Part shown: positions 3,128 through 40,784 of the stretch, piece after piece
Position numbering within the stretch: the stretch's first letter is position 1
How the letters are laid out: every line of letters begins with the position of its first letter
Assembly: GCA_010015805.1 (NCBI GenBank)
Contig: ML978121.1
Location: 868,001 to 932,000, forward strand
DNA from: Rhizodiscina lignyota
Lineage: Eukaryota
Direction of reading: 5' to 3'
Length of the DNA: 64,000 bases
Position numbers and translations under genes: made by a program
The notes under the pieces: model-generated
What the model was told of the DNA's origin: nothing
Databases searched by the model: none
What the model saw: the letters and a program-made list of their open reading frames with translations, nothing else

Positions 3128-4743
3128 ATGGGTTTAAAGACTATTTTCGTACTTCTATCAATACTTACTTTCTCATGGTGCTCCCAAGTTCCGCTCCAGT
3201 CATGGACCGAAGAGCTCGACACTTATCAAGTCTTCCAATCTGACATCTCTCCACAGCACAGCATCCGTATTAAGCGACAAAATGACACCATCTGCGATGC
3301 TCATTCTGTCCAATACACTGGCTGGCTCGACATTGGCACATCTCATCTCTTCTTCTGGTACTTTGAGTCTCAGCATGCGCCGAAGGACTCTCCGCTTACG
3401 CTCTGGCTTACTGGTGGGCCTGGCGGTTCCTCTATGCTTGGAATGATGCAAGAGCTGGGACCGTGTCTGATCAATGAGCATGGCAATGGAACTGTGTTCA
3501 ATGAGTATGGCTGGAACAAGAGGAGCAACATGATCTTCGTGGACCAACCAGCTGGCGTTGGGTTCTCATACGTGGATGAAGGTACGCCGGTACCGGACAA
3601 CAGCTTCAGCGCGGCATCAGATATGGGATTATTCCTGCAACTGTTTGTGAGCCAGGTGTTCCCATATCTATTGGAGAGTCCATTCCACATTTCAGGAGAA
3701 AGTTATGGCGTAAGTGGTTCCAATTCGTCCCTGATGGAATTGGGTCACGTGCTCAATATTCAACCCGGTGTCCTGTGGGGAAATGTAGAAGAGCATGATT
3801 AGGAGGACCGGGACCTCTTTCACCTCTTACAAGTGTATGCTGATATCACCAGGGCCATTACATCCCGGCTCTGGGTGCACAAGTCGTGCGGCAGAACGCG
3901 CTCTACCCCTCTCGCCCACGCGTAAACCTACAGTCGGTCCTCATCGGTAACGGTCTATTTTCGTTTCTCGATTCCGCCTTCGGACACTGGTCCACGCTCT
4001 GCACAACCCTCCCTGGAGTCGATGAGCCAGTATTCAATTCCACCCGCTGCGACATCCTAGCCACCAACCTGCCACGTTGCATGGATCTCGCACGCGTCTG
4101 CTACTCCCATCCCGACCCCGCAATCTGTCAGGCCGCCGGACTCATATGTTGGGACGGCGTGATCAAGTACTATGACTCAGAGAGCGGGAAAGGCGGGCGG
4201 AACAGGTTCGACATTACCGCCCCATGTGACATTGACGATTTCTGCTACGCGAACACGGCACTGATAGAGGAGTATTTGAACATGCCGCACGTGTTTGAGG
4301 CGCTGGGTGTGCCGAAGAAGCATGTCAAAGCCTTCAACGTGTCTAGCGACGCGATTATGATGGCGTTCACACTGGGCAATGACCTCGAACTGTCGATGAC
4401 CCCGCAGGTGCAGTATCTGCTAGCGGACGGTATCGATGTGTTGATCTACCAAGGGAAGTTGGACTTGGCGTGCAATACGCAGGGCAACATAAGATGGTCG
4501 GAAAGTGTTCCTTGGAAAGGGCAAGCGGAGTTCTGGGCGAAGTCGTTCAAGAGGTGGGAGTCTGGAGGAAAGGAAGTTGGAGAATTTAAGGAGGTGAATA
4601 TCCAAATGAGCGAGGAGCATAAGAAGAAGACACGGTTTGCTTTTGTGACTGTGGACAAGAGCGGTCACATGGTCCCCCAAGACCAGCCGGAGGTGGCATT
4701 GGACCTGATGCTCAGGTGGATTGAAGGAAAGAGCTTCGAGTAG
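3128..4743 (+). CDS. Secreted serine carboxypeptidase, family S10
   Basis: Signal peptide; [26 protein letters not shown] (catalytic Ser), DLACN (Asp), SGHMVP (His); intron about 3710-3852. Confidence 0.93.
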
Positions 4744-11435: not shown

Positions 11436-11769
11436 CAGTGTTCCCATCCAATCAATCGTAATCAAGCTTTGTTTGAACTGTTTGAACTTTCTTGGTTTCA
11501 TAACTTAATTATTATAGCATTCGTTAATTAAAAAGACCTTTAAAGCTTTAATACCATAAAACTTATTATTCTCATTCTAAAGATTTAATTTTCATTCTAA
11601 AAACACTGTCGTTTAAAAGATCTTTATTATAATCAAATGTGGTTGCTTGGTAAACGATTTAAATCGATTTAGATTATTGATATCAAATCAAATTAAATCA
11701 AACTATTATATAATCAAATATTATCCAATCAAACAAAACCGTTTGGCATTTGATTTGATGGGGACACTG
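11436..11769. mobile_element. Non-autonomous hAT-type MITE (334 bp)
   Basis: Left end CAGTGTTCCCATCCAATCAA matches the reverse complement of the right end (CAGTGTCCCATCAAATCAAA). Flanks are 8-bp direct repeats TACACCGT (11428-11435) and TGCACCGT (11770-11777). The interior is very AT-rich with repeated AATCAA motifs and no transposase. Confidence 0.85.
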
Positions 11770-17284: not shown

Positions 17285-18503
17285 TTATATTTGCTTCTCT
17301 TCCTTGTAGAAGGTGCTCCGCATGTCCAAAAACTCCCGATGCCGGTCTTCAAACATAGCGCCTGCCAGCGACTTTGCCACAGATGCCATCAGCATGTCCT
17401 GCTTGCTAGTCCAGACATGGCGGACGAAGAGCCCGTAGCACCCTGAGTGGCTCTCTGGAAATCCGTTTGCCTCTGTACATGGCAGCTCACGAATGTCCTC
17501 TTTCTCTTCAAAATCATAGCGAATGTAGTTGCCCATTGCGCCTTGATCTGTCGGCTTTCCCGGGGAATTGTGTTTGAAATTCGAGCAATTCGTGTATTTG
17601 CTATCCTCCTCCGGGCACGATGCCCATGCATCGAGAATGTCATGGGTTCGTGGATTGTTTTGCGCAATGATGAAGCCGGTATTGAGATATCTCCGCCCAA
17701 AACTGTCCTTGTTGTTGTCGGAATTGGGGTCGAGAGCCATGGCAAGGCCCGTTTGGTGGGGGATGATCCGCCAGTAATTCAATAGCCATTCAAAGGGGAG
17801 GTCGAGGTGATAAAAGATTGCGTCGGAATCGACGTAGATGCACACATCGTGCTTTTTAAGGATTTGGGAGATGATAGGCGGTTTTCGCCACGACGGGCGA
17901 CGGTCAGTGGGCGTCTCGGAGCGGATGTAGTAATATTTATAGCCATGTATTTGAGCTGCATGAGCGTTGGTGTCAGGCTTGTGAATACGCTCAAAAAACG
18001 GCAGGTTTCCACTGGGAGCAACTCACCATACATGTAGTGGTTCAGCACACCGGCTGACAAGCCATTTGCGGTGTCAAAATTCCATGACTTTTCGTTGAAA
18101 ATCTGGCCATCTGTGTCTCTCGCCCGATCATCGAGGTCTATAATGCATAATCGCTGGCCGAGAGAATCGGTCCAGAGGGCTTCTCCTTCGCGCTGCCATT
18201 CTTGTCCGCCAAACTCCTTATAACTCTCTGCGTGGACGGGTATCGACGGTGAATGGAGGGCGCGGAAGAGGTCGCGCAGTTCGCTCTTCGAGAAAGGATT
18301 CTTGATCGGCCTGTGAAGTGAAAGGCTCAAATTAGCTTATTCCAGGCGCAAAAGGTCTTGTTTGAGGCGCACCAGCTGTTCGACCTGAAGTCTTGAAAGG
18401 AGTCGGTATGCCGAAGGGAGAGCCAAGCGAGTGTAGCGAACAGGACGAGAGTGATAGCAGCAATATACGGCAGCTTCACCGCTCGTCTGAGTTGTGCAGA
18501 CAT
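17285..18503 (-). CDS. Type II membrane glycosyltransferase (GT34 / Gma12-Mnn10-like nucleotide-diphospho-sugar transferase)
   Basis: N-terminal TM; GVLNHYMY..HGYKY, DxD in YVDSDAIF, LNTGFIIAQN, DQGA, PCTEANG, RHVW; two introns. Confidence 0.85.
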
Positions 18504-20419
18504 AGGGTGCGCTGCAGCGCTCACTCTCAGGTCCACGTTGGGATCTCTGAGCGTGACGATGTGTGATGTTTGAGGTGTGTTCCGCGAGAGGCGCTCTGGG
18601 GATGTGCGACTTTTGGCTTTCTCCCGTGCTCCGACTAGAGGCAGAATTATTATTGAAAACGCGGCAAGGGCTACTAAAAAGGCTCCTGAAGCACGCGGTA
18701 GGGGTAGGTCGTTAAAACGCGGCCGCCAAAGGGAGACGGGGATACGGGCTTTTCATAACTCTCCAGCCACCAGCTAATAGACGGTAGAGCTACGCGACAG
18801 CTTGAGCTTTGATCAGTTCCGGCTTAGAGGATAGGGATTGCAGAGGCGAGCGGGGTGAGTGGCTCTGGGCGAGTAAAGCGCGTGCGACTCCTTTTCTGAG
18901 GCTGTGATGCGCCAAGGAGCCAGCTGCTCGTCCACCCAACCGCGTCCGCTGCAAATTCGTCGCCAAGCACGAAGCGGCTATGTCGGGAGCAGCGTGAAAG
19001 GCCTCTAGTGCGCGCAAAGCAGGTCTAATTCGCCCATTCGCCAAGATTGGCCGTGCCCCATTGCATCAGGAGATTAGTTCCCTGAATCCCTAGACCTCTG
19101 CCGCCCGTTCACCTGCGAAACAAGCCTCGGGCCTCGAGGCTACGACGTGATTCTCTCTCCGCCTTTCACTGTCGTCACTACGATAACTGTGATGTTGAGT
19201 CTGCTGTCTCCCAATCCGGCCCTCATGCATGACCACGCGTACACAACACCTAGCCACGTAGGTCCCCGAACGGAGATCAACCAACGCGCAAGGGGGTCCC
19301 TGAGACACTGCCATATAAAGCCTGCATTGCCCCGCAACCCTGTCAGAATTTTCAGTGCGTATAGCATTCTTTAGCTGTCCAATCCGGCTACGTTGGTGGT
19401 GATCTCTCTACTAAGCATCGCCTATCTTCCTCCCCATGTCACGAGGGCATTCCGCAGCCATTGAGCTCGTCTATTCTTCAAAAGCGCACCAATTACGCTC
19501 GAGGACGACAGAATCCTGTTTCTCAGAAAAGAAAATCGAATGCACAGGGGCTTATACCCGGGCGAGCCTCTCCCGCCACTACAGCTGCAGCAGTCTGCAA
19601 GGCAAGCTGCAAGCCCCTCATGGTCTCGGTGGCGCAGCAGTCTCTGAAACGTCGAAGATCCTCTACCGAAATCGAACGTCAGGTGGCGAGTCTGATGGCT
19701 GAAGAGCCGAATATAACATGTAGCGGAGTAAAATGCGTAAGACGGCATTGTACAAGCGAATCCATCAACTCCAACGATATTTATTTGGCGCGGAAATACT
19801 TGCTTGATGAAAAAACGGAGACCGGAGACAAGGAGAAACTCCGTTGCCCTTGAATACGCCTCTTAATCTGTGCCTGCAGGGCAATCTATCTATCACGTGG
19901 ATTTTCGCCCTGCATCTGAACTCGCGTTTGAAACGTATGCGCCAATTGCGGGTTTTCGAAGAGTTCTCGCACACCAGCAGACTCGCGCCTACTTCCTCAG
20001 CTGGTCTTGGGTAGGAAAACTTGGACGTCCCATCCCGCAGTGGGGACATTCCTCCTGTTGTCCCTTTGCATGGTCGATCTAGATAAAGCGTCCTCCTGGA
20101 ACTTATCGTATAACCAAGTGGCCTCGGTTTAGCACAGATCCAGCTGCCTCTCGTGATCGCACGAAGGACTTCATGACCGAAGACACCTCCGATCAGGAGT
20201 GCCAGGCTCAGGGTCACTAATCATTCATTTCGACGCCTAACATGTTGCGATTTTGGGTCTCGAATAATTATACCGCAAATCCAGCCGCGCTGGACGACGA
20301 GGCAGCACATAGAGAGTCGCCATCGGTATCTTTTTTATGCGGATGCGTAGAGAGCATCAAAGCGAGAGGTCTGGTTCGTGCAGCCTGCTTGACTCAGGAT
20401 CTTGAAGTCAAGATCTTTA

Positions 20420-21178: not shown

Positions 21179-24100
21179 TCAAACTTTTTTGGGATCATCA
21201 TCGTACGTATCGTTTGTCGCTCCCAGCATCATCTTCCATACGTTTCCCCCCTCGAATGGCTCGGTATCCACTATGTCTCTGTACTTCTATTAGGTGGGAG
21301 ATTTTGAAGAAGGGTTGTGGCCAATACGAACCTGGAGACAGTTGGGTCATCCTTCCCCAAGCGGTCAAGGCGCTCAAGACGCCTCTTGCCCTCCTTATCG
21401 TTTCCGAAACGAATGAACTGGATACCGACGTTCTTCTGGGGTTGATTGTTCTCGTCGAGAGCTTGGATGAGCGACCTGATACTCTTCTCAGCAGCATCGT
21501 AGCTCTCCGCCTGCCAGACGCCGTCCGTAAATACATAGATTTGAAGTCCCCTGGTAGGTCCGAGCAGCGTTTTGGCTAGTCCAAACCTGTTAAGTTTCCT
21601 TTTGTATTCTGATAGGAGTTTGTCTAGTTGTTTTGGAAGATCGGATTCAACTTTCGAAGGAACAGTGTTGCTGACGAGGTTGATAAGCGGCGTTGTCTTC
21701 TTTTGACCTGACAAACTTTTGGTATTGATCGTGAAACGAAGATCCAAACCATCTTCGTCTAGCCTCTCCTGCTTTATGAGGTATGCAAGTGGCCCAAAAA
21801 GCGTTTTCACGTTCGGCCAATGGGGCTTCATAGAAACCGCGTCGTCGATCAAGAACACCTATTGCATAATTAGCATCCAATCTAGATATGTGCAAACCAC
21901 ACGGGCGACAGGGCCTACATGATTCATCCCACGAAGCTCATTGACAAGATCACTCTCTTCAAGAGATCGACCGTTGCGGGCTGAAGTTGGTGATCTTAAA
22001 ATAGAAGAACTCTCGCGTTTCATCTTTTGATACCACTTCTCAGCTTCAAGTACGGATAAATAGCGGAGGCGTGTAGGGTTTTCGAGGGCTCTGTTCTTGG
22101 AGGAATTAGAGTCTTTCGCTTGATCACTTCCTTCGTGCATGGATAATCCTGTCCGCCCAGCCCTTTCGCCTCTCTTGGACGGGTCTGAAATTGTTGGCAG
22201 ATTCGCTTCTTGGTCGCTGGGAACCTCTATTCGGGGATTTTTCTGGTGTATGAGTTGGGCCTGTTCAGATGGTTGAGCTATGAAAACATCATCTTTCGCT
22301 ACTTCCGTGCTGCTAAGGACGTTCGGGGCTGACCAAGGCGAGACAAGATGGTACTCTTGCTTCGGCTTTCTTTGATGCGCAACAGGCAAAGGCCTTGTAT
22401 AGCCTGAAGTGGCACTTGATTGGGAAGCTTGTGTTGTCATCATACTGTGGTATGCGACAAGGGGCGCCTGACTCGACAGTCCGATGGTGGCATTAGTCGC
22501 ATCAGCATACCCACGGTGGAACCCTTGACTATCAGTAGCCCATGGATGCGAGCCGAATTGCGGTGGATTGTGGTGAGGATCGTAGACTCGGTCGTTTGCA
22601 GAAGAACCTGCTGCGTAGGACAACGGCTCGGGTAAATCATTCTCACGGTCGGAAAGACGATTGTTGTACAACCAGGGCGGATTTCCGTGGGTATGGCCTT
22701 CTTTGAATCTGATAGGCCCTCCATGTTGAAACGGTTCATGAGACTTCCGAATGTCTCGTGTATGGGAGTCTGATAGAACAGTGTTTCTCTGCTTCGATGC
22801 ACTCGCAGGCCCAGGAGGTGGACTGCTAACACTGTTCCGCTGCAAATGAAATGGTGGTGCCATTGGCGGCGGTCCATGGGGCTGCTCGGGGGCAGTGAGC
22901 GCCCTCGTGATCTCCGGTCCTTGCAAGCGGTGGCGCGCCTTTCTTAGAATCCTTTGACATCTTTCATGCAAAAGCTTGGCGGTAGGACGTTCGCCCGCTT
23001 GCAGCATTAAATCTGTTAGCTCGACCACATCACTAGTGATAGGGTCATTTCCGCGAGCGCTAGTCTTTGCTCTCTCAAGCATCTCTTCGACAGTGGCGAG
23101 CCTCTCCTCCCCATTATGGAAGCAATCGTCATCTTTGAAACCATCAATCTTACTTGTCTCAACACGTCGATGCTCGCGATACTGATCAAGCCCTTCTGTT
23201 GTAAGAACAACCCATGCAACAGCCTCACTGAAGACCGCTCCGAGGGACCACACATCGACCTTTGGAGCGACAGGTAGGGGCATTCTTTCAATAAATGAAT
23301 CAGGTCGATAGCACTCCGGAGCGCCTAAGGGAGTATTAGCGAGAGCGAGAATTGAGATGTAGGCACCATTTTACCATATGTTTTACCGCCATGTGAATCA
23401 TTGTCAACCGGAGTGCTCAGATCGTCCACTGCCTTGAAATGGCTGGCTCCAAAGTCCGCCAGCTTAAACTTGCAATGGAATCGACTAGAAGTACCCCCAG
23501 AGACGACAAGGATATTGTCAGGCTTAATATCCTGATGCCAGCTGCAAGGTGTTAGGCATAGTTCATGTGAAGGTAAGAAGAGTAAAAGAGCCCGTACATG
23601 ACGCCTCGTTGATTCTGCCCCTTCTTGACACCATGAATGAACATCAATGCGGTGCACAACTGTAGCAGACTTTCATAGAATGCCAAAATATCTTCCGGTG
23701 TCCGAGGCTCTGACCCATGAAAGAAATCCTCTAACGTACCGCCATCCGCATATTCGAGGATGGAGTGGTAGGAGTCGCCGTGTTGGAAGCTCCCGCAGAA
23801 TTCAATCACCGCGGGACAACCATGACGTTGAAGTAGTGAAAGCGCTGAAGTCTCAATATCGTGGTCCTTTTTCGCTTCTGGGGTGTAGTACGTCTTCAGG
23901 ACTTTGGGTCGTGGGCAATCCTAATCTTGTTAGGAGCGAGCCACAATTCTGAGCATTGAGAATATACCAGTTCATCGTAGCCCCCATATGTCTCGATCTT
24001 GTATACCCTGGCGCTGCTTCCCTGCTTAATTGGGTCTGCATCTCGCGCAAATGGGAGTATTTCGTCCTCATCATAGCGACATTGGCCACGCCGTAACGGC

Positions 24101-24510
24101 TGAGCACAATATTTCCACTGCTCTCGTTTAAATTGGTCGAAGAATTTGTGTGCTTTGGGGAAGCGCTCATGTTCGGATGTGAATGGCAGCTTTTCATCGC
24201 TGAGGTTCTCGAAGATGAAGTGGGTGATGAAGCTCGCAAACTTCGCCTGTTCCGTCTGTAGAAGGATCGCAAACACGGCCGGGAACCTGTTTGCGATGGT
24301 TGGGGCAAGCGATTCCTCGACATGTGTCTCCTGAAGGAGGCTCTTTAGGCGAGAATAATTATTTTCGGAAAACCTAGCCTTCAAAGACGAGGCAGGAAGA
24401 AACGGTTTGGTCGAGTCACCACGAGTCCCAGGAACGCATTCGCGCTCGACCCACCGCAAGTGCTCCTCGACGGCAGGTTTGGGAGTGGCCTCCCCTTGTG
24501 GATCTGGCAT
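21179..24510 (-). CDS. Ser/Thr protein kinase with C-terminal von Willebrand factor A domain
   Basis: Spliced model with 5 introns: QGSSARVYKI, VLK (beta-3 Lys), ILEYADGGTL, WHQDIKPDN, LADFG, TYGAPE, DVWSLGAV; low-complexity linker; VWA VFLIDDAVSM...IYVFTDG...VGIQFIRFG...DIVDTEPFEGGNVWKMMLG; stop at 21179. Confidence 0.9.
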
Positions 24511-25232
24511 GGCGCCCAGGGAGCAATGCCGTGGGGCATTGGCGAAAACGCGTGCTCAGGAGTGGCACAACAGACGAACAGTGCTAATGGATGAGATGAA
24601 TTCAGGATTCGCGCCGGTTTTGAGACAAGAAACCGGTTCATCGAGGCCAGGCTCAGCGCGAGAAAGAGCCTCTCCAATCCCCGCCCACCCGCTTGCGCGC
24701 ATGTTGAGGGCAGGCTGCCGTCCACCTATGATGCGGCCGTGGAGTCCTGCAGGTCTAAGGCTGGGGCGCAATACGAGGGACATCTTTCACCGGTGACTGA
24801 CGTCAAACATGAGATGAATTTTCAGTGCAACTCACACTGTGATCGCTCATACGTGATATGCTGAATGCTCGATAGATGTTGGATTAGCGACTGTCCATTT
24901 TTGATGGCTGACATGAATCGTAAAGCCGTCGTCTACTGCAAGGAATCGGCACGAGCCGATCCCTGGAACCCGGAATGTGGCTGAGGGGCAGTGCTAAGCC
25001 ATTGTAGGGTACATAGGGGTTTGCTGCAGACGATCTTCGTTCTTAGTGTTATGTCGAAGATATATGTGATCTTGATATGCATTAGAGGATGGTACTATAT
25101 ATTCAAATGACATTCGAAATATACGTATAAAAATACATCAAAGAAGCGAAAACATTTGTGAGGGACTGTTGAGTGGCACTACTCCGTACACTCAACTCAA
25201 ATCATCAGATCGTGCAGTCATTGAAGTGGAGG

Positions 25233-27190
25233 TCATGGGAATTGTTGCAGATAGGCTCGTCTCCGCATCCCAGATTCGTTCCGGATCCATAGAAGAAAGG
25301 CTCCGCCGCACAGCAGAACAGTAATGCCCGTTAGAGGAAGGCTTGCTTCAAGAAACGTTCTTAAGGCAGGCCATGAGTATACCAATTCCGACCTCCCATT
25401 CTCAGTGTTCCACTGAACTATGCTTGTACTCATCACAGTCTATCATTGATTTAGTAGATGCTGATATGTGAGAGGCAAATGACTCACAGATATGAAGGTC
25501 GCTGGGAGGTAGACGATTGTCACGAAAGCGATGAGAGTCATGAGAGCAGTTTGCCTTGCTGTCTTGAATGCGACTTGGTTCATCTCCTCCGTCAATATCT
25601 GCATCTTGTCCGCAGATTCTTGGGATTTTTGCGTGGCCTGCTTGCTCGCTTCCAGGTTTCTGTACTCTAAAATGCCGTAAAGCTAGGAAGGAATTAACTT
25701 TTGAACGACAAAGCAAATACATGTACTTACCATGCTTCTGCGGTTCCCTAGAATGCGAAGAAGCGTCTCCGCTCTGGCCTTCTGTGTAATTATATGGTTT
25801 TCCGCATTTTCCAGGGCAAAGATAAAACGTTGCAGTTTCCTGTCACACTTTGTCTTCAACTCTTCGGGCCAGCCTTCATAATTAGGAAGAATCTCGTAGT
25901 ATTGTCGCATTTGCGCCATTACCTTTGCATTCGACTCCAAAACAAGCAGTGCCTCAATGGCCTTTTCTTCAATGAACTGTAACCGTTGCAAATCATCGAA
26001 GTTGAAGACATCCATAACTCTTTGCTTCTCTGAATGTGCTGGAAGTGTACGCATTGGCACTGCGTGACCTGGTCCAGAAGGTGGGGCCATTGGGGGATTC
26101 GAAGGTGGCGGAGGTTGGCCTCGCGGTTCTTGCGCTGGTCTTGCTGGTGATACACCGCGACCTGAATACCATGCCGAATTCGCTACTTCTGGTACAGCCC
26201 GCAGAGTGCTTCGACGCGTGGGCAGAGGTCCGATCTCTGGAGAAACATCCATGGTGACCGGCACAGCATAAGACTGTCGCGTCAATTGCTGAAACTCCTC
26301 TTCAAGAAAGTTCAAGTACCATCGCCAATTCTCGCCGGCCCAGTCGCAGGAGACCAAGTGCACATCAAAAGTCGCTGAAAATAGTCGCTCCACGGACTCA
26401 TGTAAGCTAGGATCGTTGAATGAAGCAGTCTCGGAGAGCTTTGTCATTCTTCGTTTCATCGTATCGTTCCCTTTAACTATGATCCAATTTGTGGCTCCCG
26501 TTTCCACGTCAAATGAGTGGTAGAAGGAGCTGTGCCTAACTGACCATGGCCATGACGGCTGGCTACCGGATCGCTCAACGGATTTGAGGCTGTAGCATAG
26601 GCCGAAATTGCGTCCTGAGCGGCCAAGGTCTTCCTTTATCGCAGTATAATGATCATTCTCACTGATTCTACATTCAGCGCGGAAATAATTCGTGCACGAG
26701 TCTTGCGGATATTGCTGCTCTCCAAATGGGTAAAGGAAGTCCAAGAAATTAGGGAGAACTTGATGGTATGTGAAATACGTCATAAGCATCTGCCGTGTCG
26801 AGTATAGACGACCCAAAGAGTGACCTCCCCAAAGGAATCTGTAGGTCCGTGAGTGCTGGAGTCTGGTGCGATAGAGGAAGTTATAATTACTCACAAGAAA
26901 CGGCATTTTGGGTCCCTTTGAACTGTATGGTTATTGGGGTTGAGATTCAAGATCGTTTGCAGTCTTGCGAAGTTTTGAACCTTCTCGGATTTCCAACGGC
27001 CATCCGCGTCATTCAACTCTAGAAAATTGAGCGATGTCCCATTTTCCGCCGACACAAATAATTGGTTTTCTCTCTTGTTGAGCTTTTCGTAATGGTCGTC
27101 TAGATGATGCTCAAATGGGTAGTCGTCTACCAGGGCTTGGGGTCTGGGAAATTGAGTGGCAGAACGGCACGCGCGAAGTAATTGATCCAT
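25233..27190 (-). CDS. Fungal CorA-like membrane protein
   Basis: Spliced model with 3 introns: DPKCRF...TYHQVLPNFLDFLYPFG...WSVRHSSFYHSFD...WIIVKGN; long stalk helices; two C-terminal TMs MTLIAFVTIVYLPATFISTVMST and LRTFLEASLPLTGITVLLCGGAFLLW. Confidence 0.85.
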
Positions 27191-27647
27191 TCCAGGTCTC
27201 AAGCCTTAGGCAAGAATAATTAAAACAGAGTAGAGAGAGACTAAAATCTGACAGCGCTCGACGAGCACAAATATTCGGAACCATGATCAACTCAGGGATG
27301 TGGATCGATTGTCATGGGCAAATGCACCGCCACGCACGGGATCTGAAAACGTTTGAGCTGGATTGACTCCGGCGGTAAGGCGTTGGCCACGGTTGTAATG
27401 GCTTGAGGCGCAGCCCCCCTTGCCAAGTCTGAAATATGCGCTGAAAGAATCTGGTAATACATTATCTGCTAGAAGACCCAGTCGATTATCGGCTCATGTA
27501 ACTCCACGTTGGACTAAGGAGACGCCCGACGCCCCAAATTGCCACGATACAGCCAGAGTCGTAAGAACTCTGTTTATCTTCCGGATCTGCCTCGGCGCCA
27601 TTGTACCAAGCCTTGTGAAATAATCATAGTAACTCAATTGGAGTTGC

Positions 27648-27968
27648 TCAAAGCGGATTTTGTGTTCTTAGCTCCATGAGACGTTGTCGCTCGCTCTGGG
27701 GGTAGCCTTTTCAGCGCCCATGACCGAGCTGATTCTAATGCTCGACTCACCTCATCCAAAAGACGTGGAATCCACACCCTCCAATGGTCCGTAACGAGCT
27801 TTTGTGGCAATCAAGGTCAGCTTATCGTGCTCAGATCACCAGGAATGAGCCGCGGCTCCAACTTACGGTAGTATTGAAATCGTATTGGCCAAACAGACTG
27901 ACAAGATACTCGTTTACCTTATCCTTCTGTAGGCGGTAGGCGGAAATGAATTCCCAAGTCCACCCCAT
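27648..27968 (-). CDS. 65-aa three-exon microprotein of unknown function
   Basis: MGWTWEFISAYRLQKDKVNEYLVSLFGQYDFNTT | LVTDHWRVWIPRLLDE | SERQRLMELRTQNPL*, joined by two phase-0 introns (GTAAGT..AAG, GTGAGT..CAG) that keep the frame. Confidence 0.78.
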
Positions 27969-28834: not shown

Positions 28835-29893
28835 TCACACACTCACACTCACTTCTCCAAATCGATTCTTTCCCTTTCGTAGATTCCTCGCGTCCTCTCG
28901 TGTCAATTTCTTCTTCCTTGACCCCGAAAACCCTGCTAGCGTGTCGTCCTCATCTTGTTGCAGGCCTGGGAATTTGTGCTGACGATGCCGAAACGCTCTC
29001 CTCTCCGCTAAACGGTTATTCCTTTCTTCCATCAATACTTTGCTTTTGAAAACTTTGTCAGGCAGGCCCCATATTCTGACCACGTAGGTAGTCCCGTCAA
29101 TCTGGACGCGAATGTTCTTCCTCGGTAGTGGTGTATTCTCGTTGTCCACCCTTGCGGCTCGGAAAATATCCTCAAGAAGTTCTGAGATGCGGGTTTCGAC
29201 AAACTGCTCCCACGTCTCAATCTTTACGGAGGCCAGCGCAAGCACCGCCTGGGACCAACTCCAATAATGTCGCCAGTCGTACTCGCCCCCGATGAGTCTC
29301 CCTCTCACGATGCTTAGATAGCCACCGTTGCCGCGAAGCGTGGCCATTAGATCGAGCCACACGCTACTAATTTCTGCATGATCACTCTGGTTTGGAAGCA
29401 TCTCTTGCGGGATTTCTAACGTCTTCAGTTGTGGCAAGTCCACCGCAAGGTCGAGAAATTTGAGTCTTTGTCGCTCCAAGTAGCCCATGCTGGCTCTGTC
29501 AGACATGTAGTCGACAAAAGGAATCAAAGACAGATGTCTCATGTTGATGTGCTGGCCCTGCTCCATTGCGCGGACAATCGTCTTTTGCATGAAGGACCGG
29601 TCATAGTACCAGAATATGGTCTCTTTGTAAAAAATCGGCAAGGCTTCATTACGAATCTGAGTGCATGTTCCGAACAGACCCATGGCAGGTCTAGGTTGAT
29701 GAGCAAGATCTGATGACATTGGTGACACGCGATGACCTTTGAACTCCTTCAAGAAAGGATATTTGGGACCGGCAATGACGAATCGGTAAATGAGTTGCCG
29801 AAGCTCGAGGGGCAGTCGAAAGAGATGGCTAGACTGAGGCATGTTTCTCGGATTCCGGAGGCTATTGGTGCGTGCAGATAGGGTGAGAGACAT
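28835..29893 (-). CDS. Hypothetical protein with F-box/2EXR-like N-terminal motif
   Basis: SHLFRLPLELRQLIYRFVI...LFGTCTQIRNEALPIFYKETIF is a common fungal F-box-like family pattern; long intronless ORF. Confidence 0.75.
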   Translation of the reverse strand: MSLTLSARTNSLRNPRNMPQSSHLFRLPLELRQLIYRFVIAGPKYPFLKEFKGHRVSPMSSDLAHQPRPAMGLFGTCTQIRNEALPIFYKETIFWYYDRSFMQKTIVRAMEQGQHINMRHLSLIPFVDYMSDRASMGYLERQRLKFLDLAVDLPQLKTLEIPQEMLPNQSDHAEISSVWLDLMATLRGNGGYLSIVRGRLIGGEYDWRHYWSWSQAVLALASVKIETWEQFVETRISELLEDIFRAARVDNENTPLPRKNIRVQIDGTTYVVRIWGLPDKVFKSKVLMEERNNRLAERRAFRHRQHKFPGLQQDEDDTLAGFSGSRKKKLTREDARNLRKGKNRFGEVSVSV

Positions 29894-30884
29894 CTTTGAA
29901 GTAGGATTGATGGAAGTGTGCTGACTGCTTGGAGACACAATGATGGAAGAGGAGCAGCCGGGATTTTTGAGCTTGGAATAGAGCGACTCTGCCTGAGGTA
30001 TCACTCAAGGAAATTTGGCTCTGAGTCCATTTATTTATCTCAGAAGAGCCGTAAATGAGTCAACCATACTCCTGACTCCATTCCGAATATGGTCACCGTC
30101 AAGCTCAGCCTGCGCCACAAGTCGCTAAGCCACGAGCCACAACCACGGAGGTACCTGACCGCCCAGCGAAGAAATAAGGAGTTGTGAGCATATGAGACCA
30201 TGAATAGACATTTTCGTGGACCTACTATTGATGCGGGAAAAGCGGAAAGAACATAAGCGATAACGGTGACATTGACAGAGAAATGAAATAGGTGTCGGCT
30301 GGCAACGGAAGTGCGTCTTGTCGGAGCCGGCCCCGAATTGAGAATGGATGCTGGTGCGGTTCCAACAATCTATCCTAAGCGCCAATTGAAATTCTTTATG
30401 AGTGAATAGTGAAACTTGCCTGCTAAAGGAGCGAAGATAGAGTGAACAACGACAGCAAAGGAAGAGCAATTTTGATGATGCACCCACAGACCAGTTGGGC
30501 TTAGGCCGAATGCTGTGGGCAAAGGCGCGATTTGATTGGGTGGATAGGATCATGAGCTTCTCCGCATGCCGACTTCTTTAGCAGCTAGCTCGTCCCGGGG
30601 GTCACTCTGACAGGCCTTTCCACCAACTGCGGGGAAGCTCTCCAAGCAACGTACCACACCCGCACTGCAAAGGTGAGAAGTGACCAAGCGCTTGCAGACA
30701 GACATTGAGACTCCATCTACCGGATCCCTCCGTCATCTCCCACTTCCCCCACACTGGGCACAAGACATACACAACCTTCGAACGGCTTCCCGAGCCTGTG
30801 GACCGCGACATTCACATTCTTTGCTTTTCACGCGCACTCTACACCTCCAACGCACTCAATTGTACCTCCTCCACCGCTCCAACC

Positions 30885-39086: not shown

Positions 39087-40178
39087 TTAGACAAACCTCA
39101 GGTCGCCATCAGAGTTCTCGATTCTCTCATCCAGCCACACTGAATCCTCCCTCCAGTGCCCGTCAACGTTGCACAGCTCCGCAACCAGCACCCTTCCTCC
39201 ATTCTCCAATCTCACATGCCTCGCGCTACCGCCAAAGTTTCCACCATGCGGCACCCACCGGAAGTGCCCATTATCGTTCGTCAGCACCTGGTTCAAGCTA
39301 ATGCTCGACAGCTTCGGACGGCCCGAGATGTCCGAGCAAGACGCAATAAGATCGTAGTCTTTATCCAGGCTCATCTGCGAGCTGCTCGACGAGAAGTTGC
39401 CCCGGAATTGCTGATGGTGCTGCTTGCCATGGTCGTCATCGCTCGAGCTCGACGACGAGGATGAAGAAGACGAGCCGCGCCGTCCCATTGCGATCTTCTG
39501 CGCCTTCTTCTCCGCTTTCTTTTTCTTCCTTTCCTCCTTCACATGGTCTTCGAGCTTGTGCCCGGCATACGCACCACCCAGTGCACCGATGAAACCATGG
39601 CCACCCAGTTTATGGCCTGCATAGCCACCTGCGGCGGCGCCACCGATCGCGCCTAGTAGTCCGCGATCTTGTTCATTAGGGTTAGGCGGCATGCCTGGAG
39701 CGCCCGCAGGTGCACCGAAGGCTGGGTCCATTGAAGGTTGTGCCTGCGGCGGATACCCTTGATGCGGAGGATACGGCTGGTCTCCGGCGAAGCGGTCCTG
39801 TTCAGGCATGCCATAAGTCGATACCGGTGGCGGAGAGCCATATGATGGCGCTGGCGGTGGGGGAGAGCCATAGGAGGAATTATGGTCTTGCGCATATGGC
39901 TGCGGAGCGTGGCCCCCATACCACTGCTGCTGGGGATAGGGTTGCTGATATCCTGCTGGCTCTTGTTGATTGTAGCTATCGCCGCCCTGATAGCCCTGAT
40001 GACCGTAATAGTCGTGGCTGGCACCATGCGGTGCGCCGTATCCCGCTGGCGGAGACTGCTGATATTGGCCTTGCTCTTGTCCATACGGAGGATACTGATT
40101 GTATTGATTCTGCGGCGGATAACCCTGCTGGTACTGGTTGTCGCCTTCGCCGGCGCCATAATTAGGAAGTTGAGTCAT
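39087..40178 (-). CDS. Q/Y/P/G-rich protein with glycine zipper and C-terminal CVNH (cyanovirin-N) domain
   Basis: DRGLLGAIGGAAAGGYAGHK zipper; CVNH GNFSSSS...LIASC...ISLNQVLTNDNGHF...FGGSAR...LDERIENSDGDL. Confidence 0.88.
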   Translation of the reverse strand: MTQLPNYGAGEGDNQYQQGYPPQNQYNQYPPYGQEQGQYQQSPPAGYGAPHGASHDYYGHQGYQGGDSYNQQEPAGYQQPYPQQQWYGGHAPQPYAQDHNSSYGSPPPPAPSYGSPPPVSTYGMPEQDRFAGDQPYPPHQGYPPQAQPSMDPAFGAPAGAPGMPPNPNEQDRGLLGAIGGAAAGGYAGHKLGGHGFIGALGGAYAGHKLEDHVKEERKKKKAEKKAQKIAMGRRGSSSSSSSSSSSDDDHGKQHHQQFRGNFSSSSSQMSLDKDYDLIASCSDISGRPKLSSISLNQVLTNDNGHFRWVPHGGNFGGSARHVRLENGGRVLVAELCNVDGHWREDSVWLDERIENSDGDLRFV

Positions 40179-40784
40179 GATGAACGATGATGGGGATTTG
40201 ACCGCCGCGATGGAAAGGAGGCGGACAATGAAGGTGAAGAGGGGTATATGAAGAGATGTTGCTGCCTCAGGAAGCAGTTAATTAAACGCCGGGTGGTTCG
40301 ATGAGACAACCCAAATCTCGATGCTGCGCCTCAGCAAGCTGCTCAGCCACAAATCCTTCGTGTTTGTACAAATCATGCCAACCGAATCAGCCAATGAACA
40401 CTTTGAATTGAACCCCTTGTTTGCACTCAGGAGCTGAGTAGCGCCAGCTGAAGATTTCACGTGTTGAGGGGTAGACATAGTGGACTGCAAGGTTCCAAGG
40501 TTGACGTCGCTTTACAGCGGTCGACGCGTATAGCAAATGCCGAATCAAGAAAAAGCACCAGCCGCACCATCTTCACCGGCGAGTAGGATGAATGTGAAGT
40601 TCGAGTAGTATATGCTTGCACTCAAAAAGCCACAGCGGCTGACGGTTAATCGGCATCCGCATCGTGCTGTGTACAGCTCAGGATGAGCAGCTTCTCACGA
40701 TATCCGGTTCCGATTGCTCTCGTAGAGATAACCATCCAACATTCCAACTTCAGGCATCCAGAGTCGAATTCACGATCGACGATC

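Follow-up and report, generated by a model that had tools for sequence, protein, structure and literature searches.

Do three adjacent genes of the fungus Rhizodiscina lignyota, a Dothideomycete, belong together, and what might such a unit do? The question is raised by a stretch of 64,000 nucleotides (nt) of contig ML978121.1 (assembly GCA_010015805.1, positions 868,001 to 932,000), hereafter the window. An earlier reading of its letters, the original prediction, had seen there a candidate signaling or conflict module made of a microprotein, a CorA-like membrane protein with two transmembrane (TM) helices, and a protein kinase fused to a VWA domain. Our analysis shows that the three genes are one co-inherited cassette, which is widespread in Pezizomycotina and appears to be kept in the form of old, divergent haplotypes.

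All three genes are intact, spliced and co-oriented on the minus strand, as had been proposed, and the window contains a single copy of each (Table 1; exons were derived from stop-to-stop frames and the sequence). The six-exon translation of the kinase-VWA gene agrees at every residue with the database protein P0121 of 1021 amino acids, which NCBI names 'kinase-like protein [Rhizodiscina lignyota]'. The CorA-like model has a single, terminal stop, and its start, splice points, and end agree with those of the full-length homologues P0014, P0044, and P0065. No 100%-identical CorA-like protein of 202-646 amino acids was present among the library matches to exon 2 of this gene, which may be unannotated or differently modeled in the public record. 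For the microprotein, the three-exon model returned the 65 residues that were expected. The same three-part layout is reproduced by intron-less homologues (P0276, 64 amino acids; P0294, 75 amino acids; P0295, 62 amino acids), which come from contigs of about 1 kb in two Logan assemblies and one JGI/IMG assembly and are consistent with being transcripts. The spacers, previously estimated at about 0.45 and 0.7 kb, measured 457 nt between the microprotein and CorA-like genes and 722 nt between the CorA-like and kinase-VWA genes. Protein atlas searches returned Ascomycota clusters only.

Linkage was assessed in metagenome contigs that were retrieved, with 10-kb flanks, by an alignment of the VWA exons only; neither the CorA-like gene nor the microprotein was part of the query. 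Of 159 matches to the pattern, 113 held up on confirmation, and the top 80 of these were retained. Dereplication at ≥90% nucleotide identity reduced these 80 loci to 53 clusters. Searches by tblastn with four CorA-like proteins detected a CorA-like gene in 33 of the 80 loci. Each of them adjoins a kinase-VWA gene, and all 33 loci fall among the 54 in which a kinase is visible upstream of the VWA domain. When the count was restricted to dereplicated kinase-VWA loci that have 2.3 kb or more of upstream DNA, the CorA-like gene was found directly upstream in 20 of 23, in the orientation of the window in 16 cases and inverted in four. The downstream side served as a control and contained a CorA-like gene in 0 of 15 dereplicated loci with at least 5 kb of downstream DNA. 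One rearranged cluster with short flanks (L070/L071) has its CorA-like gene on the downstream side of kinase-VWA and gave no microprotein match.

A profile of microprotein exon 1 matched 23 of the 80 loci, and the window, at E<1e-5. Every match is located about 0.5 kb upstream of a CorA-like gene and is co-oriented with it, in the inverted loci as well. No match was obtained away from a CorA-like gene in the 739 kb of locus DNA or in the rest of the window. Of 17 assessable dereplicated loci, 16 carry the microprotein. Clustering of open reading frames (ORFs) of at least 70 amino acids from 26 loci and from positions 11001-38000 of the window revealed no fourth gene common to at least five of them. 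The unit therefore consists of three genes, whose linkage cannot be put down to a broad conservation of gene order. These results bear out the neighborhood conservation that was the first test suggested for the module. Both large families are expanded (401 and 1109 database matches for the CorA-like and VWA queries, respectively), and a chance adjacency of two such families next to a spurious small ORF was therefore considered as a candidate explanation. It was rejected, and we regard it as extremely improbable, on the one-sided placement of the CorA-like gene, on the occurrence of a microprotein with conserved exons at nearly all assessable loci and nowhere else, and on the congruence of the gene trees.

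This congruence was quantified by Mantel correlations of pairwise distances. Across 21 loci, the CorA-like protein was correlated with the N-terminal domain of the kinase-VWA protein (r = 0.655) and with its VWA domain (r = 0.60), with p = 0.0002 for both, and the intragenic control, N-terminal domain vs. VWA of the same protein, gave r = 0.84. For the microprotein the correlations with the CorA-like protein, the kinase N-terminal domain, and the VWA domain were 0.74-0.77 (11 loci). The CorA-like tree and the tree of the kinase N-terminal domain contain the same starred groupings of loci. The inverted arrangement occurs in two separate clades, and the microprotein has moved together with the CorA-like gene in both. 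Because shared species history contributes to such correlations, they show co-inheritance and not interaction. Partial Mantel coefficients for the microprotein (0.32 with the CorA-like protein and 0.15 with the kinase N-terminal domain) come from 11 loci and 50 columns and are too weak for use. A complex prediction combining residues 1-540 of P0014, exon 1 of the window kinase, and P0295 scored 0.01; its chains were cross-species and alignments were unused. It gave no verdict and supports no claim of binding. The original prediction had named unlinked homologues with incongruent phylogenies as the outcome that would count against it; the homologues are linked, and their phylogenies agree.

Divergent haplotypes, another feature that had been proposed as worth looking for, were found in near-identical contig pairs and are confined to the cassette. 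In three such pairs the flanks are 97.5-100% identical and the cassettes 76-98% identical; the corresponding values in two further pairs are 91-95% and 73-75%. The comparison of L034 with L055 illustrates how sharp the borders are. The count stays at 0 mismatches per 100 nt until position 3199 and returns to 0 from position 11500, and the 8.5-kb island in between carries 466 substitutions vs. 40 in 9 kb of flank. This island starts approximately 670 nt before the microprotein start and stops approximately 750 nt past the kinase-VWA stop. Synonymous divergence (dS) between these two loci reaches 0.06-0.18 within the cassette, compared to 0.005-0.014 for the ORFs that flank it. Between L053 and L052, dS is 0.12-0.6 in the cassette and 0-0.012 in the seven nearest flanking ORFs, and divergence peaks in CorA-like exon 1, the microprotein, and the N-terminal domain, kinase, and linker of the kinase-VWA protein. 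Between L064 and L067, the kinase-VWA gene has a dS of 0.43-0.51; the outermost flanking ORF shows 0.121, and the other eight remain at 0.007-0.076. The main cassette exons of the haplotype pairs are free of stops, and the ratio of nonsynonymous to synonymous divergence (dN/dS) is 0.08-0.43 in the folded parts and 0.27-0.8 in the linker. Values for L047 vs. L055, computed with the coordinates of L034 and thus possibly out of frame, were excluded. A second, smaller divergent patch was noted in the L052/L053 pair, some 7 kb downstream of the cassette, where the surrounding flanks are 99-100% identical; identity is 89-96% at 17500-19500 (dS 0.05-0.12), and three ORFs at 17.9-20.5 kb have a dS of 0.034-0.124.

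Repeat-induced point mutation as the source of the islands was ruled out, because their transition/transversion ratio of 1.5-2.2 resembles that of the flanks; in addition, the ORFs are intact and the GC content is unchanged. Haplotypes were also found to differ in arrangement. L030 and L071 share a downstream flank with 95% identity, their kinase-VWA genes are 73% identical, and the CorA-like gene is located on opposite sides. The comparison of L062 with L071 shows a similar pattern, and a segment that flanks the cassette on one side in L034 is located on the opposite side in L074. These three pairs represent structurally different haplotypes at one chromosomal place. Flanks are also shared between L040 and L064 (upstream) and between L030 and L064 (downstream). 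As far as nucleotide comparisons can tell, the cassette shows the pattern of het loci, at which old alleles persist alongside one another.

A selfish element of the spore-killer type, acting by toxin and antidote or by meiotic drive and spreading and diversifying to its own advantage, would likewise be expected to be tightly linked and self-contained; here the CorA-like pore would be the poison, and either the microprotein or the kinase would provide the antidote. The lack of any flanking gene common to at least five loci, the varying position of the cassette relative to its flank (L034 vs. L074 and L030 vs. L071), the divergence of the haplotypes, and the constant pairing of a small protein with a membrane protein all fit such an element. 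However, an orthologous position is kept in some clades, as the flanks shared by L040/L064 and L030/L064 demonstrate, and the 64-kb window showed no sign of repeats, a transposase, or additional copies. Moreover, the known fungal killers Spok and wtf are single genes and belong to other families. On balance we consider a killer element improbable.

What the cassette might do was approached through its proteins. In the kinase-VWA protein the Pfam kinase domain (Pkinase, PF00069) covers residues 189-387 of P0121 (E 8.6e-20; 71.7 bits vs. a cut-off of 31.7). All 28 full-length members compared retain the beta3 Lys, the alphaC Glu, the Asp of H-x-D with its Asn, and the first residue of D[FL]G. 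The window kinase carries HQD, DFG, and APE and is, judging from these residues, probably catalytically competent. An Arg before the catalytic Asp was found in 0 of 28 members (HQD in the window), making these non-RD kinases. A PDB sequence search with the kinase yielded generic kinases only. Residues 163-479 of P0121 also match the PADLOC model mad6, the kinase of a methylation-associated defense system, at 84 bits (2.1e-24), above the 71.7 bits of Pfam Pkinase. This may merely reflect how the models were built, and matches to mad6-type defense kinases are limited to the generic kinase core. The exon encoding the low-complexity linker has no Pfam match.

The VWA exon as query retrieved 1109 proteins at E≤0.001 from a library of 1.84 billion proteins. 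Pfam scans of 47 matches longer than 500 amino acids placed a kinase upstream of the VWA domain in 37, and the kinase-VWA fusion therefore constitutes a large family. The remaining ten are an NLR-like protein with DUF7779 and TPR domains (P0229) and nine proteins without a Pfam match. The window VWA exon itself does not match Pfam VWA (PF00092) at E≤0.1. Relatives do clear the cut-off of 23.8 bits (L005 exon, 25.0; P0144, 24.4; P0229, 25.4; P0230, 25.3), and they match the window exon by phmmer at 1e-17 to 1e-25. No solved VWA structure in the PDB was matched by the family profile at E<0.001. VWA domains bind divalent metals at the metal-ion-dependent adhesion site (MIDAS), the motif of which is DxSxS ... 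T ... D. In the MIDAS-type motif of this family the Asp is present in 28 of 28 members, the third position is Ser in 22 and Ala in six, and the fifth is Ser in 25 and Thr in three; in the following T-D-G, Thr is found in 28 and Asp in 21 of 28. By these counts the VWA domain appears to keep most of the site. The same type of VWA was also observed at the C-terminus of the NLR-like P0229, and in loci L004-L009 (VWA at approximately 10001-10546 of L005) it stands behind a non-kinase N-terminus that has neither a Pfam match nor a CorA-like neighbor. Given its occurrence on kinase, NLR-like, and other N-termini, the domain therefore looks like a module swapped between signaling scaffolds.

The N-terminal part of the kinase-VWA protein, approximately 160 residues encoded by exon 1, was modeled by AF2 with a pLDDT of 89.1 as a helix, a beta-hairpin, and a five-helix bundle (residues ~73-137). 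A VIA-align wide search with the bundle returned mostly SAM domains in its top rows (Z 7.2 to 5.0), and these were aligned over the entire domain. The best were 8ucy (Z 7.2, root-mean-square deviation 2.0, 60 of 65 residues) and the SAM domains of SARM1 (Z 6.5), values below 8 being such as a common helical arrangement can also produce. Foldseek gave no match in the PDB at E≤0.001 for the N-terminal domain, and exon 1 has no Pfam SAM match. We treat a SAM-like nature of the predicted bundle as a lead.

The CorA-like protein begins with a cytosolic domain that bears the PF26616 label, continues with a Pro-rich linker and a helical stalk, and ends in two predicted TM helices. Exon 2 as query matched 401 proteins at E≤0.001, with a top E of 7.5e-94 and a best identity of 48%; named relatives are from Peltula, Lachnellula, Endocarpon, Bisporella, and Mycoblastus. 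PF26616, a family that carries the UniRef name 'CorA-like transporter domain', is assigned to all 120 listed of the 401 matches. The label rests on precomputed annotation, and the local Pfam copy gave no match for exon 2 of the window gene. The profile PF01544 scored weakly on window exon 3 (E=0.039, 13.7 bits), reached 24.6 bits on the homologue P0014 (cut-off 27; E=1.9e-5), and did not match the homologues P0044, P0065, and P0021; in the precomputed table it is given for P0014 only, among the CorA-like matches listed. A PDB sequence search with P0014 returned nothing below E=0.28. The C-terminal hydrophobic segments of the window protein are ALMTLIAFVTIVYLPATFIS and LPLTGITVLLCGGAFLLWI. They lie behind a long helical stalk, and the same layout is seen in P0014, P0044, and P0065.

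Canonical CorA channels carry the pore motif G-M-N at the end of TM1. In the alignment of P0014, P0044, P0065, and P0021 the pore-motif region reads ...LPGTFISTLMSTDI..., and the GMN position is occupied by M-S-T (...TFISTVMSTS... in the window and ...TFISTLMSTD... in the homologues). The protein thus resembles the CorA/Mrs2/Alr1 Mg2+ channels (PF01544) in its cytosolic N-terminal domain, long stalk, two C-terminal TM helices, and conserved ...LPxTF... segment ahead of the pore loop. It differs from them in having M-S-T instead of GMN, a long insert rich in Pro, and PF01544 scores under the gathering cut-off, and its N-terminal domain constitutes a family of its own (PF26616).

This ancestry raises an explanation without any conflict. 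The cassette could be a physiological unit of ion homeostasis or stress signaling, in which a CorA-like divalent-cation channel is controlled by a kinase-VWA regulator that senses cations through its MIDAS, with the microprotein as a subunit. The CorA-family ancestry of the effector, the conserved divalent-metal-binding MIDAS residues, a dN/dS below 1 in all folded parts, and the ordinary genes that surround the cassette in the window would all be expected under this explanation. In the lichen fungus Endocarpon the CorA family is expanded, an expansion that the authors, in the available part of their report, interpret as related to nutrient exchange (PMC3897900). The GMN selectivity motif is nevertheless replaced here, and the sharp islands with a 6- to 90-fold excess of dS, together with rearranged haplotypes, are unexpected for a housekeeping transporter. 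Furthermore, the cassette has been lost in places, loci without a CorA-like gene being nested among CorA-bearing relatives, and single samples hold several distinct cassettes. We judge a homeostatic role to be rather unlikely.

In the microprotein, exon 2 is a 48-nt micro-exon in phase 0 that occurs at the same place in most of 12 loci examined; exon 1 and this exon are conserved in related loci with identical intron positions. The exon-1 profile retrieved 44 database proteins with E values from 4e-14 to 6e-7, the three intron-less homologues among them. The AF2 model of the homologue P0295 (pLDDT 90.8) is a compact beta-alpha-beta-beta-alpha domain. Met1, Tyr9 (in a Y-R-L loop), Leu20, and Phe29 (P0295 numbering) are invariant in the alignment. 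Foldseek gave no match for the microprotein in the PDB at E≤0.001, and the VIA-align wide search returned generic ferredoxin-like domains only (ACT, HMA, RRM, and secretin N-domains; Z≤5.0).

The disordered linkers of both large proteins share a proline motif, PPx[LMIV][PA]P, which is often followed by G and a hydrophobic residue (F or M). It was counted in 8 of 28 kinase-VWA proteins and in 14 of the 120 listed CorA-like proteins, compared to 0.15 and 0.12, respectively, in shuffled sequences, an enrichment of approximately 50- to 100-fold. Among 21 loci, the PP..PP motif occurs in both partners at seven, is confined to a single partner at four, and is missing from both at 10. In the window both linkers contain PPMAPP (CorA-like, 26000-26110; kinase-VWA, 22990-23030). 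Both linkers might be bound by one and the same reader, for which the aromatic-rich microprotein and a cellular proline-binding domain are candidates. The motif was also noted at L013, L017, L025, L028, L045, and L056.

Of the explanations considered, a device for non-self recognition or regulated cell death is the most likely, and we consider the chances of this hypothesis to be evenly balanced. Its target could be other strains, as for het genes, or parasites. From the protein features we infer binding partners, a phosphorylation target, pore formation, and a biological role as follows. The cytosolic kinase-VWA protein would be sensor and switch. Its VWA domain (through the MIDAS), its SAM-like N-terminal domain, or both would bind a protein ligand and drive oligomerization, which would activate the non-RD kinase. 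The kinase would then act on the CorA-like protein, likely at the disordered Pro/Ser-rich linker. The CorA-like protein probably forms a pore as a pentamer of two-TM subunits. The GMN filter that confers Mg selectivity is gone, and the flux of ions through the open pore would serve as a signal or kill the cell. The microprotein, whose compact alpha/beta fold is rich in aromatic residues, would be an adaptor, a specificity ligand, or an inhibitor of the pore. A bolder version holds that the cassette represents a new class of fungal recognition or immune 'supergene', with ancient balanced haplotypes across several Pezizomycotina classes, in which a SAM-like, non-RD kinase-VWA sensor gates a CorA-derived death channel. 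Specificity would come from the aromatic-rich microprotein as adaptor, perhaps through recognition of the PPx(hydrophobic)PP motifs shared by the channel and kinase linkers. In this version the cassette would also provide the first eukaryotic conflict effector of the CorA family, convergent with the bacterial CRISPR-CorA proteins. This version is offered tentatively, and we lean against it as it stands.

Several points weigh against a role in recognition or cell death. Members of the three families are not known to cause a phenotype, to interact, or to be phosphorylated, and the window genes are known here from DNA alone. The haplotype pairs are metagenome contigs, for which membership of the same species was inferred from flank identity. 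A dN/dS below 1 everywhere means that no positive selection was shown, and introgression, or gene conversion between paralogous cassettes, could give the same pattern without balancing selection. The locus set was anchored on the VWA domain, and CorA-like (PF26616) genes were accordingly sampled only beside it. Three dereplicated loci (L035, L048, and L077) have no upstream CorA-like gene; L035 and L048 nest among CorA-bearing relatives in the tree and therefore look like secondary losses. The L012/L016 cluster is without a detectable microprotein. In the window VWA domain the motif reads D-D-A-V-S, followed by T-D-G, with Ala at the first MIDAS Ser. Finally, the CorA assignment is a putative one, made from weak PF01544 scores and a PF26616 label that the local Pfam copy did not reproduce.

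Two bacterial systems had been invoked as analogies for the module. The TerY-P triad is composed of the vWA protein TerY, a Ser/Thr kinase, and a PP2C phosphatase, and some type III CRISPR systems use CorA-family membrane effectors. The cassette resembles the former in pairing a VWA domain with a Ser/Thr kinase and differs from it in that both are parts of one polypeptide and that neither a PP2C nor a fourth conserved gene is present. It resembles the latter in having a CorA-family protein as the putative membrane effector of a conflict system. In contrast to the CRISPR loci, however, the cassette is eukaryotic and has no cas or signal-nucleotide genes beside it. None of the cassette proteins gave a TerY-type match in NCBIfam or PADLOC, and the VWA domain, the CorA-like proteins (P0014, P0044, and P0065), and the microprotein match no model in either collection. 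Both analogies go no further than resemblance.

Fungal allorecognition offers closer parallels. In Neurospora, sec-9/plp-1 and het-c/pin-c are linked, co-adapted allorecognition genes. The cassette shares with fungal het and vic loci the block inheritance of adjacent genes, old divergent haplotypes with sharp borders, and intact ORFs, and by analogy its proposed output would be regulated cell death. The known loci differ in having no CorA-like membrane protein, kinase-VWA protein, or microprotein of this kind, and Pfam scans of the cassette proteins revealed no HET, NLR, patatin, gasdermin, or HeLo domain. A small alpha/beta protein as the partner of a large one has a counterpart in Podospora het-B, where, according to the available text, a HET-lectin protein is accompanied by a small PII-like protein (PMC10890737). 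In Morchella importuna, the available part of a bulk segregant analysis links the polymorphic CorA-like (PF01544) gene mimpvic32 to vegetative incompatibility; it encodes 765-773 amino acids, has 8 introns, and is accompanied by the linked mimpvic33, which has no known domain, in an interval of 23 genes (Supplementary Table 7 of PMC8940278). Like the cassette protein, mimpvic32 is an ascomycete CorA-like protein with divergent alleles, and it is associated with non-self recognition. Its length and its introns set it apart, and the association is genetic only. A 2025 review of fungal regulated cell death does not mention transporters. Searches of the available literature, outside which supplementary tables lay, found no description of the trio as a unit, in agreement with the earlier statement that no characterized fungal system of this composition was known to its author.

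Outside the fungi, the wheat rust-resistance gene Lr9 (WTK6-vWA) encodes, according to the part of the report available, a tandem kinase fused to vWA and Vwaint domains (PMC10260399). The combination of a kinase with a C-terminal vWA in an immune receptor is our working analogy for the kinase-VWA sensor. Lr9 differs in being a plant gene with tandem kinases and without a linked channel or microprotein, and the likeness of the vWA parts is one of description. In RIPK3-MLKL necroptosis, as outlined in the available portion of the source, a kinase activates an executioner that permeabilizes membranes (PMC12881547), and the order of events proposed here, from an oligomerization-activated kinase to a phosphorylated membrane executioner, cation flux, and death, would be similar. 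The parts are unrelated: the cassette has an integral CorA-like protein instead of a 4HB/HeLo domain, and no RHIM or amyloid motif was seen.

To our knowledge, fungi have few conserved multi-gene cassettes outside metabolism. Ideas about how innate immunity arose owe much to the known fungal cassettes for recognition and cell death. The cassette described here is conserved, co-diverging, and hyper-polymorphic, and its three parts appear in no described fungal system of death or recognition. If the proposed role is correct, it would add a new type of executioner (a CorA-derived channel), a new type of sensor (kinase-VWA, with an echo in Lr9), and a conserved microprotein. It would also give a testable meaning to the large 'CorA' expansions in lichen-forming and other ascomycetes.

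Table 1. Positions of the cassette genes and their parts in the 64-kb window.
Feature	Position	Strand	Description
Microprotein gene	27648..27968	-	3 exons (27968-27867, 27798-27751, 27695-27648 including stop); 65 amino acids
CorA-like gene	25233..27190	-	4 exons (27190-26895, 26838-25731, 25682-25488, 25439-25233); 601 amino acids
CorA-like TM helices and intervening loop	25284..25547	-	Helices at ~25547-25488 and ~25340-25284, predicted from the translation
Kinase-VWA gene	21179..24510	-	6 exons; 1021 amino acids; identical to P0121
Kinase-VWA exons	24510-23968, 23920-23598, 23541-23375, 23324-21919, 21858-21332, 21278-21179	-	
Kinase-VWA exon 1	23968..24510	-	Family-specific N-terminal domain and first kinase strands
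Kinase-VWA low-complexity linker	21919..22880	-	~400 amino acids between kinase and VWA; contains PPMAPP
VWA domain	21179..21858	-	Residues 814-1021; exons 5 and 6

The surroundings of the cassette had been described as an accessory region of non-housekeeping genes. This holds for the immediate neighbors, which are non-housekeeping. A UBX protein, Sas10/Utp3, CENP-T, CMS1, and a CDP-alcohol phosphatidyltransferase are encoded elsewhere in the same 64 kb, and because of the UBX, Sas10/Utp3, CENP-T, and CMS1 genes the window is not a purely accessory region. The upstream neighbor (28835-30004, minus strand) is an ORF of 352-389 amino acids with a weak DUF7730 match (26.8 bits vs. a cut-off of 27); in the ORF clustering of 26 loci it was not kept beside the cassette. 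Further away, an ORF at 39087-40277 (minus strand) encodes a C-terminal CVNH (cyanovirin-N homology) domain (E=3.9e-23).

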